Positions 1 to 42,963 of a stretch of DNA of 42,963 nucleotides are shown in pieces. The translations under genes were made by a program, and so were the position numbers. Source of the DNA: a virus. Taxonomy: Duplodnaviria; Heunggongvirae; Uroviricota; Caudoviricetes. A model generated the notes under the pieces. That model searched no databases, had not been told where the DNA came from, and was given only the letters and a program-made list of their open reading frames with translations. The stretch covers positions 1 through 42,963 of IMG/VR virus record IMGVR_UViG_2698536570_000009; one strand, written 5' to 3'. Numbering within the stretch: position 1 is the stretch's first letter; each line of letters opens with the position of its first letter.

Positions 1-1248
1 ATGGCACTGAATATTCCATTCAGAAATGCGTACTATCGTTTTGCATCCAGTTACTCATTTCTCTTTTTTATTTCCTGGTCGCTGTGGTGGTCGTTATACG
101 CTATTTGGCTGAAAGGACATCTAGGGTTGACAGGGACGGAATTAGGTACACTTTATTCGGTCAACCAGTTTACCAGCATTCTATTTATGATGTTCTACGG
201 CATCGTTCAGGATAAACTCGGTCTGAAGAATCCGCTCATCTGGTGTATGAGTTTCATCCTGGTCTTGACCGGACCGTTTATGATTTACGTTTATGAACCG
301 TTACTGCAAAGCAATTTTTCTGTAGGTCTAATTCTGGGGGCGCTCTTTTTTGGCCTGGGGTATCTGGCGGGATGCGGTTTGCTTGACAGTTTCACCGAAA
401 AAATGGCGCGAAATTTTCATTTCGAATATGGAACAGCGCGCGCCTGGGGATCTTTTGGCTATGCTATTGGCGCGTTCTTTGCCGGCATATTTTTTAGTAT
501 CAGTCCCCATATCAACTTCTGGTTGGTCTCGCTATTTGGCGCTGTATTTATGATGATCAATATGTGTTTTAAAGATAAGGATCACCAGTGCGTAGCGGCG
601 GATGCGGGAGGGGTAAAAAAAGAGGATTTTATCGCAGTTTTCAAGGATCGAAACTTCTGGGTTTTCGTCATATTTATTGTGGGGACGTGGTCTTTCTATA
701 ACATTTTTGATCAACAACTTTTTCCTGTCTTTTATGCAGGTTTATTCGAATCACACGATGTAGGAACGCGCCTGTATGGTTATCTCAACTCATTCCAGGT
801 GGTACTCGAAGCGCTATGCATGGCGATTATTCCTTTCTTTGTGAATCGGGTAGGGCCAAAAAATGCATTACTTATCGGTGTTGTGATTATGGCGTTGCGT
901 ATCCTTTCCTGCGCGCTGTTCGTTAACCCCTGGATTATTTCATTAGTGAAGCTGTTACATGCCATTGAGGTTCCACTTTGTGTCATATCCGTCTTCAAAT
1001 ACAGCGTGGCAAATTTTGATAAGCGCCTGTCGTCGACGATCTTTCTGATTGGTTTTCAAATTGCCAGTTCGCTTGGGATTGTGCTGCTTTCAACGCCGAC
1101 TGGGATACTCTTTGACCACGCAGGCTACCAGACAGTTTTCTTCGCAATTTCGGGTATTGTCTGCCTGATGTTGCTATTTGGCATTTTCTTCCTGAGTAAA
1201 AAACGCGAGCAAATAGTTATGGAAACGCCTGTACCTTCAGCAATATAG
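1..1248 (+). CDS. LacY-family (oligosaccharide:H+ symporter) MFS sugar permease, apparently complete (415 aa)
   Basis: Translation is hydrophobic with about 12 TM segments; recalled blocks shared with E. coli LacY (e.g. 'ARNFHFEYGTARAWGSFGYA' vs 'RRSNFEFGRARMFGCVGWA', 'FYNIFDQQ', 'GPKNALLIG', 'HAIEVP'). Substrate not assignable. Confidence 0.85.
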   Translation: MALNIPFRNAYYRFASSYSFLFFISWSLWWSLYAIWLKGHLGLTGTELGTLYSVNQFTSILFMMFYGIVQDKLGLKNPLIWCMSFILVLTGPFMIYVYEPLLQSNFSVGLILGALFFGLGYLAGCGLLDSFTEKMARNFHFEYGTARAWGSFGYAIGAFFAGIFFSISPHINFWLVSLFGAVFMMINMCFKDKDHQCVAADAGGVKKEDFIAVFKDRNFWVFVIFIVGTWSFYNIFDQQLFPVFYAGLFESHDVGTRLYGYLNSFQVVLEALCMAIIPFFVNRVGPKNALLIGVVIMALRILSCALFVNPWIISLVKLLHAIEVPLCVISVFKYSVANFDKRLSSTIFLIGFQIASSLGIVLLSTPTGILFDHAGYQTVFFAISGIVCLMLLFGIFFLSKKREQIVMETPVPSAI

Positions 1249-14591: not shown

Positions 14592-14641
14592 NNNNNNNNN
14601 NNNNNNNNNNNNNNNNNNNNNNNNNNNNNNNNNNNNNNNNN
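14592..14641. other. assembly gap (50 N)
   Basis: Run of exactly 50 'n' characters in the sequence. Confidence 0.97.
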
Positions 14642-27339: not shown

Positions 27340-28202
27340 ATCTACCCCATCTGGCCCAGCGATTATTTAACACCCCGCTGGCGCTGCACCCGAGTAAAGC
27401 CGAAGTCATCATGGCATCCGTAATGGACCGATTTGGTATCAGTAAAATCGAATCTTCTCTTGCCATGGAGGATGACTGGTACGGATATGACGATAACCGG
27501 GGACGTGAATCCCGTAGTGATCCGGGTTATGACAATGTGCTGGGTGTCGCCGTCATCCCGATATGCGGAACGCTGGTGCAAAAACTGGGCAGTCTGCGTC
27601 CGTACAGTGGAATGACAGGGTATGACGGCATTCGTCAGGCGTTTCTTACTGCGATGGAAGATCCCGACATTTCGGGCATTTGCCTGGATATCGACTCACC
27701 TGGCGGCGAGGTCGCTGGATGCTTCGATCTGGTTGATGTCATTTACGGCTCCCGGGGGAAAAAGCCTATCCATGCCATTCTGACGGAAAGCGCTTATTCC
27801 GCTGCGTATGCCATTGCCAGTGCAGCGGACCGGATTTCTGTTCCGCGCACCGGCGGAGTGGGTTCTGTGGGTGTGATCACCATGCACCTTGACTGGACGC
27901 AGCGGATTAAAGATGACGGTCTTAAAGTTACGATCATCACCTATGGATCCCGCAAGGCTGAAGGTTCGCCGCTGAGAGAGTTGTCAGATGAAGCGCTGGC
28001 CGCCATCCAGCAGGACATTAACACCATGGGCGAATTGTTTGTGAACACTGTTGCCAGAAACCGGGGGATTAGCGCAAAGGTTATAAAAAGTACCCAGGCC
28101 GCCTGTTTTATGGCTGCTGATGGCGTTGAAATTGGACTGGCTGATGAGGTGTGTCCTCCTGATGCTGCGTTCAAAAACTTACTTGAAAAAACAGGAGCCT
28201 GA
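27336..28202 (+). CDS. head maturation protease (S49/ClpP-like, lambda gpC-type)
   Basis: GTG start with SD GGAGGA overlapping the portal stop; S49-like blocks ('CLDIDSPGGEVAGCFDL', 'TESAYSAAYAIASAADRI'). Confidence 0.8.
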   Translation: MNLPHLAQRLFNTPLALHPSKAEVIMASVMDRFGISKIESSLAMEDDWYGYDDNRGRESRSDPGYDNVLGVAVIPICGTLVQKLGSLRPYSGMTGYDGIRQAFLTAMEDPDISGICLDIDSPGGEVAGCFDLVDVIYGSRGKKPIHAILTESAYSAAYAIASAADRISVPRTGGVGSVGVITMHLDWTQRIKDDGLKVTIITYGSRKAEGSPLRELSDEALAAIQQDINTMGELFVNTVARNRGISAKVIKSTQAACFMAADGVEIGLADEVCPPDAAFKNLLEKTGA

Positions 28203-28203
28203 A

Positions 28204-28794
28204 ATGGCAAAGAAAAAGACGTTTAGTTTTGCTCACCTCATTGGTCTTGGCCCTTCCGCTTCTGAGGAAGAAGAGGATAAAAAAGCCAAAAAAGCGAAAG
28301 CCCGTCGCGCGGAAGAGGACGAGCGCGAAGATGATGCCGATGATGATGAGCGCGACGACGACGCGGAAGAAGACGAACGCGACGATGATGCTGAAGATGA
28401 CGGCGATGATCCGGATGCGTCAGAAGATGATGATTCTGAAGACGACGGCGACGACGATCGCAAAGAGAGTAAGGCGGTAAAAAATGCACGCGCTGCTGAG
28501 CGTAAACGCTGCGCCCGTATTTTCGGCAGTAAGCATGCAGCTGCGAATCCTTCACTGGCCGCGTCACTGGCTTTCAATACCGGGATGAGTTCTGCGGCAG
28601 CAATTAATGTCCTAGCCTCTTCGGCTCCGGCCGCAGCCGCATCTCAGCCATCCCGTAAACGCTCTCTCGATCAGCGTATGCAGGAAAGCCACCAGGTCCG
28701 GCTTAATCCGGATAGCGGACAGAAAGAGACCGGAAAGTCTGCGCTGGTAAGTAAAATGACCGGCCTCTACAACTCCACAAGAGGAGAGAAATAA
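28204..28794 (+). CDS. scaffolding protein with highly acidic D/E repeat region
   Basis: ATG 1 nt after the protease stop; about 70-aa run of 'DDDERDDDAEEDERDDDAEDDGDD'; position matches lambda Nu3. Confidence 0.6.
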   Translation: MAKKKTFSFAHLIGLGPSASEEEEDKKAKKAKARRAEEDEREDDADDDERDDDAEEDERDDDAEDDGDDPDASEDDDSEDDGDDDRKESKAVKNARAAERKRCARIFGSKHAAANPSLAASLAFNTGMSSAAAINVLASSAPAAAASQPSRKRSLDQRMQESHQVRLNPDSGQKETGKSALVSKMTGLYNSTRGEK

Positions 28795-41421: not shown

Positions 41422-42522
41422 ATGCTCCGAATCGGGCAAGTCGAAGCCACTGCAACGCAGGATGGCAAATATACTGATGGAAGTGTTGCTGGTGGTATTG
41501 CCGCAACGAGGCTGCGGGCAGCAGCGTTTAATGCCATGCAGGAAGAGTTAGCGCATATCGTAGAGTCAGCAGGATTGGCGCTCGACATTAACGATATGAC
41601 TCAGGTTTTAAAAGCCATTCAAAAACTCACACTGAGCCGTGCAAACCCATTTGCCGATATCAAATCAGATGGTGCAGCGGCGATTTCTACGGCTCTCACA
41701 AACCTTGGTCTTATAGAAGCGCTAAAAAACAAACAACCCCTCAGCGATACGCTGACAAAACTTTCCACGCTGGGGCCGCAAACTAACGCTGATCAGGTTC
41801 TGTTTTTTTCTGGTAAAAATGTTCCGGCAGTATCAGCGCTGACGCTCGCTGGCCGTCAATTTATCAGTAAAGAAAATGTTCCTGATATGCTTCAGTATCT
41901 GACACTGGGGGACGGCTCAGGACGTTTACTTGGAGTGCAGGTATTCGGTACTTCGGGGATGTACTACAAATCGCCGGGCGTAAAAAAAATTATTGTGGAA
42001 GCCGTTGGCGGTGGTGGTGCCAGTGGCAATTTATCAGCAACAGCCCAAAATAACTGTGGCGTCAGCCCAGCTGGTTCTCCTGGAGCCTACGGGAAGGCTT
42101 TTTATTACCAGAATATACCGGAGTCTGTACCTGTAACGATTGGCTCCGGTGGTGTTGGTGGTGCGGGGTCAGGTGGTTCAGGTGGTGATGGCGGTCAGAC
42201 AAGTTTTGGTTCATTACTAGTTTGTCCTGGCGGAAAAGGCTCACAACAACGTCAGCAGGTTCCTCCGTTCTCGGGTGGAAGTGCCACCGAAGCCTCACCA
42301 CCAACAGGGTCCGGAATTCTGTTTCACTCTGTTTCACGATCAAATTTATGTGGGACACTTGGACTTGGTGATGATCAGGCGATTGGCATTGAAAGCACCA
42401 TAACAACGAATCTCGGGATATATGGGACAGGTGGGACAGGGAAATACAATCCAGCAAACAGTGGACCGTCAAGAGGCAATGACGGTTCTCAGGGTTATAT
42501 TATTGTGTGGGAGTATCAGTGA
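41422..42522 (+). CDS. tail fiber protein with Gly-rich C-terminal domain
   Basis: Conserved fiber N-terminus 'MLRIGQVEATATQDGKYTDGSVAGG'; C-terminal glycine-rich repeats 'GGGGASG...SGGVGGAGSGGSGGDGG'. Confidence 0.75.
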   Translation: MLRIGQVEATATQDGKYTDGSVAGGIAATRLRAAAFNAMQEELAHIVESAGLALDINDMTQVLKAIQKLTLSRANPFADIKSDGAAAISTALTNLGLIEALKNKQPLSDTLTKLSTLGPQTNADQVLFFSGKNVPAVSALTLAGRQFISKENVPDMLQYLTLGDGSGRLLGVQVFGTSGMYYKSPGVKKIIVEAVGGGGASGNLSATAQNNCGVSPAGSPGAYGKAFYYQNIPESVPVTIGSGGVGGAGSGGSGGDGGQTSFGSLLVCPGGKGSQQRQQVPPFSGGSATEASPPTGSGILFHSVSRSNLCGTLGLGDDQAIGIESTITTNLGIYGTGGTGKYNPANSGPSRGNDGSQGYIIVWEYQ

Positions 42523-42734
42523 TGAATAAAAATCAAATTTATGCGGTTGTAAATAATGGTGTTGTCGTCAATATCGCCGTGTGGGATGGGGAATATGAGT
42601 GGAAGCCAACGGATGGCATTGCTGTACTGGCTGAAGGAGGTGTTGGTATCGGCTGGTTATATGATGGTGAAAAATTCATTAAGCCTTCCTTAAAACAAGA
42701 CGACGTTATACTTACTGAGGGGAGAGCCAGTTAA
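42522..42734 (+). CDS. small protein downstream of tail fiber (70 aa), possible fiber accessory protein
   Basis: ATG overlaps the fiber stop; too short for a typical Tfa chaperone; followed by a terminator. Confidence 0.4.
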   Translation: MNKNQIYAVVNNGVVVNIAVWDGEYEWKPTDGIAVLAEGGVGIGWLYDGEKFIKPSLKQDDVILTEGRAS

Positions 42735-42747
42735 TACACAGAGTGCC

Positions 42748-42775
42748 GGAGGGGGCAAACACCCTCCCATCTTTT
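42748..42775 (+). terminator. rho-independent terminator (moderate)
   Basis: GGAGGG - loop - CCCTCC hairpin followed by ATCTTTT. Confidence 0.45.
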
Positions 42776-42924
42776 AATTTCTGCATAAAAAACAAATAAA
42801 TATGTAATAACTTAACGTTTCTATAACTATAGTTAGTAATAAAATAATGATGACTTTTTGATGCGTTTAGAGATAAGATAATTACACATTTTTCTTCGAG
42901 TTTCTGAGGAGTTAAGTTGAAATG

Positions 42925-42963
42925 AAGCCCTGCAAAGCCCTGCAAAGCCCTGCAAAGCCCTGC
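42925..42963 (+). repeat. tandem decamer repeat (AAGCCCTGCA, about 3.9 copies) immediately after a start codon; truncated by window end
   Basis: ATG at 42922 preceded by SD GAGGAG (about 10-nt spacing); repeats continue to the last base of the window. Confidence 0.8.

Follow-up and report, generated by a model that had tools for sequence, protein, structure and literature searches.

A prophage-borne esterase gene of Escherichia coli that starts with a variable decanucleotide tract: a probable translational contingency locus

Organization of the locus

Here we describe the right edge of a 42,963-nt stretch of viral DNA (positions 1 to 42,963 of the Caudoviricetes record IMGVR_UViG_2698536570_000009 in IMG/VR; hereafter the window), at which an esterase gene starts with a perfect tandem repeat of a 10-nt unit. 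The evidence presented below makes it probable that this gene is a genuine repeat-driven contingency gene, which is carried by a prophage and switched ON and OFF at the level of translation. The window is 100% identical to the chromosome of Escherichia coli AW1.7 in two independent complete assemblies. All features of this edge are given on the plus strand, and coordinates of the AW1.7 locus (L001) are converted into window coordinates by adding 36399.

The start codon of the gene (ATG, 42922-42924) corresponds to the annotated start of the coding sequence WP_211046107.1 (PGAP annotation, L001 6523), of which 42 bp fall into the window and which measures 780 bp in AW1.7. Immediately after the ATG, the sequence reads three times AAGCCCTGCA followed by AAGCCCTGC (42925-42963), i.e. 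3.9 perfect copies, which represent the first 3.9 of the 7.9 units present in the source genome. This tract was characterised with Tandem Repeats Finder (TRF; period 10, 3.9 copies, 100% matches, score 78), by extension into the source genome, by a copy census and by a frame simulation. A previous reading of the window, made from the sequence alone (the sequence-only reading), had claimed about this number of copies between the ATG and the window end, and the count stands. The period-10 self-match at the tract comprises 29 bases, compared to 8-12 bases for the longest tandem run in 20 shuffled versions of the window, hence the repeat is not a chance feature; analytically, a self-match of this length is expected about 1e-12 times per window. 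Folding of the tract as single-stranded DNA yielded hairpins of -12 and -17 kcal/mol per 80 nt, which we do not count as evidence because any quasi-palindromic repeat would fold in the same manner. A Shine-Dalgarno (SD) sequence, GAGGAG (42906-42911), ends 10 nt before the ATG and is unchanged in all E. coli and Citrobacter loci; the sequence-only reading had recognised both signals, but had placed the SD only loosely.

Upstream, the last large gene of the virion operon encodes a tail fibre of 366 amino acids (aa) with a glycine-rich C-terminal domain (41422-42522; Pfam Gly_rich_2; PHROG tail-fibre families, best phrog_863 with 4.8e-52). Its stop codon is overlapped by an open reading frame (ORF) of 70 aa (42522-42734), which is an annotated coding sequence in AW1.7 and matches phrog_14370 (1.5e-18; PHROG function unknown). 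An ORF of 68-70 aa precedes the esterase gene in all E. coli and Citrobacter loci that reach that far. The intrinsic terminator of the tail-fibre operon follows with the hairpin GGAGGGGGCAAACACCCTCC and a T-run (42748-42780; terminator scan, L001 6349-6368, i.e. window 42748-42767). The AT-rich stretch that had been noticed behind this terminator could be substantiated, since the intergenic region 42776-42921 contains 24% GC compared to 51.5% in the entire window. Judged by composition and by the E. coli/Citrobacter alignment, its main part (42776-42905) presumably contains the promoter and 5' untranslated region of the cargo gene. The approximately 90 nt before the ATG show a conservation of about 92% between E. 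coli and Citrobacter, well above that of the synonymous sites of the gene (dS 0.63). A conserved block of this alignment contains a putative -10-like hexamer, GATAAT (42877-42882; CATAAT in WS4437A-1, TATAAT in Citrobacter), without a good -35 element, as the sequence TTGATG lies only 13 nt upstream.

In AW1.7, the order of genes is tail fibre, 70-aa ORF, terminator, esterase gene, intS on the opposite strand, the tRNA-Arg gene argW and yfdC. The esterase gene is therefore the last cargo gene of the prophage, located by its integrase and attachment site. The prophage itself is contractile-tailed, with lambda-type terminase and portal, a sheath and a Mu/T4-like baseplate. With 31.5% GC in contrast to 51.5% in the window, the gene forms its own terminator-bounded unit, as it is the case for a typical moron.

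The gene product

The tract of AW1.7 consists of eight units (seven full ones and 9 nt), and with this number the ATG at 42922 opens an ORF of 259 aa (780 bp) annotated by PGAP as GDSL-type esterase/lipase family protein; the gene postulated past the repeats by the sequence-only reading is thus present. From N- to C-terminus, the product is composed of a repeat-encoded tail, a single transmembrane helix and a complete SGNH (GDSL) hydrolase domain. The tail reads MKPC-KALQSPAKPC-KALQSPAKPC-KAL..., with one decapeptide KPCKALQSPA for every three units, and the hydrophobic segment LLLMFLMAFWVLGFV (mean Kyte-Doolittle value 2.33) is preceded by five lysines and no acidic residues. The domain was recognised by PF13472 (Lipase_GDSL_2; 57.1 bits against a cut-off of 32.9, 4e-15) and PF00657 (Lipase_GDSL; 41.4 bits against a cut-off of 23.6). 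In its four SGNH blocks, the residues G77, D78, S79, G99, G128, N130, D216 and H219 vary hardly or not at all among 28 homologues, with the Ser, Gly, Asn, Asp and His of the blocks being invariant. Moreover, the two cysteines of the domain are invariant among the six closest homologues, which would fit an oxidising, periplasmic compartment.

The AlphaFold2 model of an allele with two units (predicted local distance difference test, pLDDT, 91.9) displays a long N-terminal helix, a helical linker and an SGNH core with the flavodoxin-like alpha/beta/alpha fold. Foldseek returned 115 PDB matches at E <= 1e-3, and among the top 50 of them nearly all are SGNH/GDSL-type esterases or acylhydrolases, with a top template modelling (TM) score of 0.87. 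The nearest solved proteins are sialate O-acetylesterases from Bacteroides/Phocaeicola vulgatus (phmmer 1e-20; Foldseek 4e-15, TM 0.87, root-mean-square deviation 1.8 A, 30% identity), followed in sequence and structure by acylhydrolases resembling the platelet-activating factor (PAF) acetylhydrolase. Pfam gave only GDSL families and the predicted structure is of the alpha/beta SGNH type, i.e. a hexapeptide left-handed beta-helix acyltransferase domain was not found. The NCBIfam search gave no family for the protein, no known defence protein model of PADLOC matched it, and its best PHROG, phrog_14008, is listed there with unknown function. Taken together, sequence and model suggest a membrane-anchored carbohydrate O-acetylesterase that faces the periplasm; we infer activity, topology and substrate alike.

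SGNH domains can also work in the opposite direction, as those of OafA/OafB, OatA and PatB act as O-acetyltransferases. Hence, the domain could receive acetyl groups from an AT3/MBOAT membrane partner of the host and transfer them, which would agree with the shared fold, with the appearance of the C-terminal domain of OatA among the fold matches and with a membrane anchor that would hold the domain near such a partner. However, the OatA domain is a far weaker structural match (E 2e-7, TM 0.53) than the esterase-type relatives (E 4e-15, TM 0.87), the cassette contains no AT3/MBOAT gene, and the members of the stand-alone PAF-acetylhydrolase-like subgroup with known function are hydrolases. We regard a transferase as very unlikely.

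The sequence-only reading had guessed at a cargo for either surface modification or restriction-modification. The former fits a membrane-anchored SGNH protein resembling carbohydrate esterases in the prophage slot of neuO and oac (see below), while the latter found no support in a gene encoding an SGNH esterase. A virion-associated esterase of the tail fibre was considered as well and rejected, since the terminator of the operon precedes the gene and the product is small and has a transmembrane anchor.

Reading frame and copy-number variation

Since the unit is 10 nt long, every gain or loss of one unit shifts the reading frame. A simulation with one to 14 units resulted in the full-length protein only at n = 2, 5, 8, 11 and 14, while the other two frames stop two codons (...CYY*) or 11 codons (...AIINVFNGVLGSRIC*) past the tract. 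The protein cluster that includes the AW1.7 product (59 members) reflects this periodicity, because its 239-, 249- and 259-aa forms differ by steps of 10 aa or three units; it contains also forms of 198 and 229 aa called from internal ATGs and 'partial' forms from contig ends.

We counted units in 32 loci with a complete tract and found n = 2 (three loci), 3 (two), 4 (three), 5 (12), 6 (one), 7 (three), 8 (one), 9 (two), 10 (three), 12 (one) and 13 (one), every unit being a perfect copy. The downstream frame of 232 codons is intact in 16 ON and 13 OFF loci, and three of the 16 OFF loci carry an additional frameshift; these loci were retrieved via particular intact protein forms, which biases by construction both the ON:OFF proportions and the intactness of OFF alleles. 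In the same 232 codons, the 13 intact OFF loci differ from ON alleles by 0-4 substitutions. All three frame classes occur naturally on otherwise near-identical DNA. AW1.7 has n = 8 (ON) at argW in both independent assemblies, and the closed genome of WS4437A-1 has n = 6 (OFF), for which PGAP calls a 198-aa, N-terminally truncated protein from an internal ATG.

The dynamics of the tract can be seen in seven pairs of loci (five distinct comparisons), which show only 0-3 mismatches in 1.7-3 kb of flanking sequence, yet are one to three units apart. Without any flank mismatch, L009/L010 and L030 have five and three units (1957 nt compared), and L016/L017 and L026 have two and five (1666 nt). One mismatch in 2343 nt separates L007 with nine units from L004 with 10 and likewise from L005 with seven, and three mismatches in 3000 nt separate L021 with 12 units from L028 with 10. 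The tract evolves much faster than its surroundings. Hence, the repeat number is not invariant among isolates, and the signature of slipped-strand phase variation that the sequence-only reading had seen in the tract is supported, as only n = 2 mod 3 is in frame and the copy number varies between isolates.

It could be argued that such differences are artefacts of short-read assembly, in which repeats collapse or expand. Many draft contigs indeed break at the tract: at least 20 of them begin exactly one base past it, and an IMG/VR contig ends inside it, as the window itself does. Such breaks are consistent with a great length or a heterogeneity of the tract in the reads, but they prove neither. 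Furthermore, the n = 2 alleles of L016-L018 lie near contig ends and two of them stem from Logan assemblies. Against this explanation, n values of 8, 4 and 6 are found in closed genomes, AW1.7 gives the same result in its two independent assemblies, tracts of 19-129 nt fit within the read length, and different n occur inside long contigs with unique sequence on both sides. We regard an origin of the copy-number differences in assembly as hardly credible. Assemblies from short reads break at the tract, and annotation pipelines are led by it to truncated or partial protein calls, which results in a systematic mis-annotation of the gene.

A more elaborate switch with three states was considered too, in which translation would re-initiate in the n = 1 mod 3 frame at TAATG, a stop codon overlapping an in-frame ATG. 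It was rejected as a general feature because this ATG is ATA in the commonest lineage and because the product would also be devoid of the lysine-rich N-terminal flank. In addition, the coding region of the esterase contains a run of eight A (L001 6943-6950, outside the window), which is A8 in 36 loci and A7 in five. This run may be a second slippage site of lower frequency or just a mutational hotspot.

Prophage slot and mobility of the cassette

The esterase gene, the AT-rich region before it and the distal part of the 70-aa ORF make up a cassette with a GC content of 31.5%. The tail fibre preceding this cassette varies, as do the type of prophage and the integration site, the latter being argW/yfdC, purK, dacD, thrS and others. 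The homology between the prophages of AW1.7 and WS4437A-1 (L002) begins in the middle of the 70-aa ORF, from window position 42636 onward, which marks the left recombination boundary of the cassette. Its right boundary lies about 50 nt past the esterase stop codon, where sequence similar to the CUS-3 int gene starts.

In AW1.7 and many other isolates, the intS gene adjoining the esterase gene is 96.8% identical to int of CUS-3 and 97.4% to int of Sf6 at the DNA level. The gene orders of these two phages are similar: the CUS-3 record contains the endosialidase tailspike gene, neuO with 19 copies of AAGACTC, int and attL, and Sf6 contains tailspike, oac and int. Moreover, an SGNH homologue with 38% identity occupies the slot between tailspike and int in the P22-like Escherichia phage vB_EcoP-683R2 (ON470594; L156 2049-2663). 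That protein has a signal-peptide-like N-terminus (...FFSFA/SD) and no repeat, and a CPS-53-type integrase lies alongside; the deposited annotation starts its coding sequence downstream of the signal-like sequence. No match was obtained in nucleotide searches of the phage collection, whether for the edge region or for the whole gene and in near or distant mode, nor in a scan of JGI metagenomes for the SD-ATG-repeat junction.

AW1.7 harbours a second esterase cassette in a different prophage adjoining dacD (L052 4610-5345; CP072539, approximately 2.054 Mb). This copy is out of frame with its four units and carries an A8-to-A7 frameshift in addition; its annotation consists of two fragments (83 and 114 aa). 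The double-hit allele (n = 4/A7) was also found at argW in other isolates (L051 and L053-L055 are listed beside L052 for it). The window ends after exactly 39 repeat bases, which is the point where the two AW1.7 copies diverge (n = 8 at argW, n = 4 near dacD; L052 4610-4648). Its right edge may hence reflect a fork of the assembly graph at the repeat and not an arbitrary cut.

Maintenance and origin of the tract

An obvious question is whether the out-of-frame alleles are switched OFF or simply broken, i.e. whether a hypervariable number of tandem repeats (VNTR) without adaptive role sits in dispensable cargo that drifts towards a pseudogene. The gene is rare, being present in two strains among 5,426 complete E. 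coli genomes, the n = 4 lineage has acquired its second frameshift from A8 to A7, and the five alleles resolved for the commonest lineage (M4I/I37V/D80N/N84D) are without exception OFF. These observations would agree with drift. However, OFF alleles are intact apart from their frame and match ON alleles exactly or almost exactly, and all units are perfect, while an unselected decaying tract should gain interruptions. E. coli and Citrobacter orthologues (89% amino-acid identity) show a dN/dS of 0.17, and the 5' region including the SD is conserved. Furthermore, approximately half of the resolved contigs are ON according to the contig counts of the cluster, compared to one-third expected from random n, and neuO with the same architecture is a proven switch. 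We consider drift as improbable. The sequence comparison indicates that the gene is under purifying selection and maintained, not decaying.

Nevertheless, beside the retrieval bias of the census mentioned above, several points weigh against a functional switch or against parts of its interpretation. Some decay occurs, since the lineage with n = 4 and the A8-to-A7 frameshift inside the gene is a true pseudogene. All evidence on copy numbers comes from the comparison of isolates and not from within one clone, and repeat counts from short-read assemblies may be imperfect. The sample is dominated by n = 5 (12 of 32 loci), n = 2 is probably quite stable, and some alleles may effectively be locked ON. 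A scan of the AT-rich region for consensus sigma-70 sites gave no site at threshold, hence the promoter of the cargo gene is deduced from conservation. Regarding the enzyme, 30% identity to the sialate esterases (6NJC/7PZG) does not fix a substrate specificity, and AW1.7 has the O128 O-antigen, for which O-acetylation is not known.

The Citrobacter orthologues have the same position after tail fibre and 70-aa ORF at the prophage end. Their gene starts with ATG AAGCCATACA AAGCCCTACA AATT..., an imperfect proto-repeat of two units, which is identical in all eight loci fetched. More distant homologues from Pectobacterium (51% identity) and Providencia (40% identity) have no such repeat. Among the 5' ends of approximately 100 distant homologues from IMG/VR and GTDB genomes, we found four A9/T9 runs and no multi-base repeat, hence the tract is specific to the E. 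coli lineage. The proto-repeat in Citrobacter together with the repeat-free distant homologues further implies that the expandable tract arose in the E. coli lineage; judged from these sequences, it probably did so by perfecting and amplifying a pre-existing duplication.

Two of the distant homologues deserve mention. The gene of Providencia sp. Je.9.19 (L049/L076 4001-4012, two identical sequences) adjoins a prophage tailspike gene and starts with TTG followed by A9, a run that could act as a different slippage switch. The homologue of Pectobacterium atrosepticum (L045-L048) lies in a decayed island with integrase fragments and IS4/DDE transposases, but no intact prophage, and may have been retained after loss of the phage.

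Comparison with known systems

Slippage of repeats near the start of a gene is an established principle in Haemophilus and Neisseria, in which lic1A, lic2A, lgtC and oafA contain tetranucleotide repeats and opa contains CTCTT repeats in its leader-peptide coding region. Located at the 5' end of the coding region, these repeats change the frame through slipped-strand mispairing, and their targets are surface carbohydrate modifications including O-acetylation. As in opa, the repeat described here lies in the part that encodes the N-terminus of an export/anchor segment. The Haemophilus and Neisseria loci are chromosomal, have units of 1-7 nt and belong to naturally competent mucosal pathogens with many such loci, whereas the present locus is prophage-borne and has a 10-nt unit. 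In E. coli, phase variation is generally ascribed to inversion and Dam-methylation switches rather than to repeats. A review on phase variation from 2025 names only inversion and methylation switches as E. coli examples and does not mention neuO (PMC11868660).

The gene neuO is nevertheless an established 'mobile contingency locus' of E. coli, which switches within cultures and affects the susceptibility to K1 phages (PMC3046976; PMC13001214; PMC9659370). It has a heptanucleotide VNTR two nt past the start codon, and its full translation requires a copy number divisible by three (PMC3046976; PMC13001214). The parallels to the esterase gene are extensive. Both genes are cargo at the argW hotspot, with a tail(spike) gene on one side and an integrase of the IntS type on the other (PMC9659370), both have a perfect tandem repeat with a unit not divisible by 3 that starts 0-2 nt from the start codon, and both are translated in full length in one of three repeat-number classes. 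In both cases, the repeat is translated into an N-terminal peptide repeat (PMC3046976), and both enzymes, here according to prediction, handle O-acetyl groups on carbohydrates.

The differences are equally clear. The unit of neuO has 7 nt (AAGACTC) and occurs in 2-93 copies, in contrast to 10 nt (AAGCCCTGCA) and 2-13 observed copies in the esterase gene. CUS-3 is P22-like, while the carriers found here are of the myovirus type with sheath and Mu/T4-like baseplate. NeuO is a cytoplasmic enzyme. It belongs to the left-handed beta-helix family of acetyl-CoA-dependent transferases (PMC3046976), whereas the esterase is an SGNH hydrolase with transmembrane anchor and predicted periplasmic location. 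Pfam indicates no homology between both proteins, and the likeness is confined to locus architecture and switch logic. NeuO adds acetyl groups, whereas the esterase likely removes them. Finally, switching and phenotype are proven for neuO, while they are predicted for the esterase gene. By analogy, the locus is likely a counterpart of neuO in architecture and logic, with an unrelated enzyme, a likely opposite reaction and a different unit.

The position between tail(spike) gene and integrase/attP is also shared with oac of Sf6 and gtrABC of P22, which are likewise independent low-GC morons acting on surface glycans, a role that is predicted for the esterase. The gtr genes of P22 are phase-variable as well, but epigenetically via Dam/OxyR and not via repeats. 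Oac is an AT3 membrane acetyltransferase and the Gtr proteins are glucosyltransferases or flippases, i.e. none of them is an SGNH esterase. With regard to the enzyme, the EstA-type SGNH proteins (PDB 6NJC, 6XPM, 7PZG) are the best matches in sequence and structure and have the same Ser-Gly-Asn-His blocks. Their PDB chains comprise approximately 200 residues, however, while the prophage protein has an uncleaved-looking transmembrane anchor, a helical linker of about 45 residues and the repeat-encoded tail. The SGNH deacetylase domains of phage tail fibres and tailspikes share the fold too (BFVD matches) and represent phage enzymes that edit acetyl groups of receptor glycans. They reside in structural proteins of 400-1300 aa, in contrast to a stand-alone membrane protein of 239-259 aa encoded past the operon terminator and presumably expressed from the prophage. 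A literature search for the repeat string returned only unrelated primer-like matches, and searches on phase-variable esterases, prophages and decanucleotide repeats returned nothing that describes this locus.

Possible function and significance

If the locus works as a switch, slipped-strand mispairing at replication would add and remove units, and it would do so frequently within a clone. The MutS-dependent mismatch repair of E. coli does not recognise loops as large as 10 nt, hence slippage in the tract would go uncorrected. Such gain and loss of units would imply that a population of lysogens is mixed and always holds ON and OFF cells. In ON cells, the enzyme would be held by its anchor in the inner membrane and expose the catalytic domain to the periplasm, where it most likely would strip O-acetyl groups from carbohydrates. 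The preferred substrate would be a surface glycan in transit, such as O-antigen, enterobacterial common antigen (ECA) or capsule, and its de-acetylation would change the receptor or epitope that is met by phages and host. By analogy to the poly-psi heptads of NeuO, the lysine-rich decapeptides (one, two, three or more copies in ON alleles) might tune membrane insertion or activity.

The nature of the substrate is less certain than the switch, and the chances of a surface glycan are about even at best, an alternative being free O-acetylated sialic acid as a nutrient. The switch may be real and the enzyme nutritional, i.e. a periplasmic sialate or glycan O-acetylesterase that makes host sugars with O-acetyl groups, such as Neu5,9Ac2, available to the lysogen. 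The NanS-p esterases of prophages in enterohaemorrhagic E. coli (EHEC) serve this purpose, as do NanS of E. coli and EstA of Bacteroides, the closest solved structures and sequences are sialate O-acetylesterases of gut Bacteroides/Phocaeicola, and the predicted periplasmic location would suit deacetylation before uptake. On the other hand, E. coli already has NanS, and the level of identity to these relatives (30%) does not establish specificity. Moreover, the place by tail-fibre/tailspike genes and int is the classical slot for receptor modification, occupied by neuO and oac and also by gtr, and stochastic ON/OFF expression is typical of surface structures and not of catabolic enzymes. We consider a nutritional role as rather unlikely.

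E. coli is regarded as poor in repeat-driven contingency genes, with neuO as the standard repeat-based exception. The mechanism itself is well known and has a direct precedent with neuO in the same prophage slot. A second case, with the same slot, a near-identical integrase and an unrelated enzyme of probably opposite activity, would, if true, mean that these temperate phages have repeatedly adopted a stochastic control over the acetylation of surface glycans, and it suggests a convergent recruitment of 5' repeats by IntS-type prophages for this purpose. The most far-reaching form of this view would make it the second mobile contingency locus of E. coli, evolved independently of neuO: a 5' tandem repeat, of 7 and of 10 nt, would have been recruited twice by IntS-type prophages to randomise the acetylation of surface glycans, here via an antagonistic periplasmic de-O-acetylase that erases marks of the NeuO/Oac/WecH type set by the host or a rival prophage, and lysogens would be mixed in their phage-receptor and antigenic state. 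We put forward this extended scenario tentatively and, as a whole, lean against it. From a practical point of view, AW1.7 is a cultured strain that is ON at n = 8, which provides a handle on an uncharacterised family of membrane-anchored SGNH esterases located at the tail-fibre/integrase junction of Enterobacterales prophages.

Other features of the window

The left end of the window (1-1248) contains a host gene for a LacY-family sugar/proton symporter of 415 aa (Pfam LacY_symp, 1.8e-192), i.e. the window spans the left prophage junction. This symporter is probably CscB of the sucrose locus at the argW/dsdC hotspot, and the cscB sucrose locus occupies the same argW hotspot (PMC9659370). In the early region, 50 N at 14592-14641 represent a masked stretch or a scaffold gap, and ORFs across this run are unreliable. 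A further tandem repeat was found in the head-gene region at 28312-28410, which is imperfect, has a period of 27 bp and 3.4 copies (TRF score 112) and is rich in GAAGATGAC/GAT codons. It lies inside the ORF 28120-28794 and would encode an acidic repeat rich in Asp and Glu.

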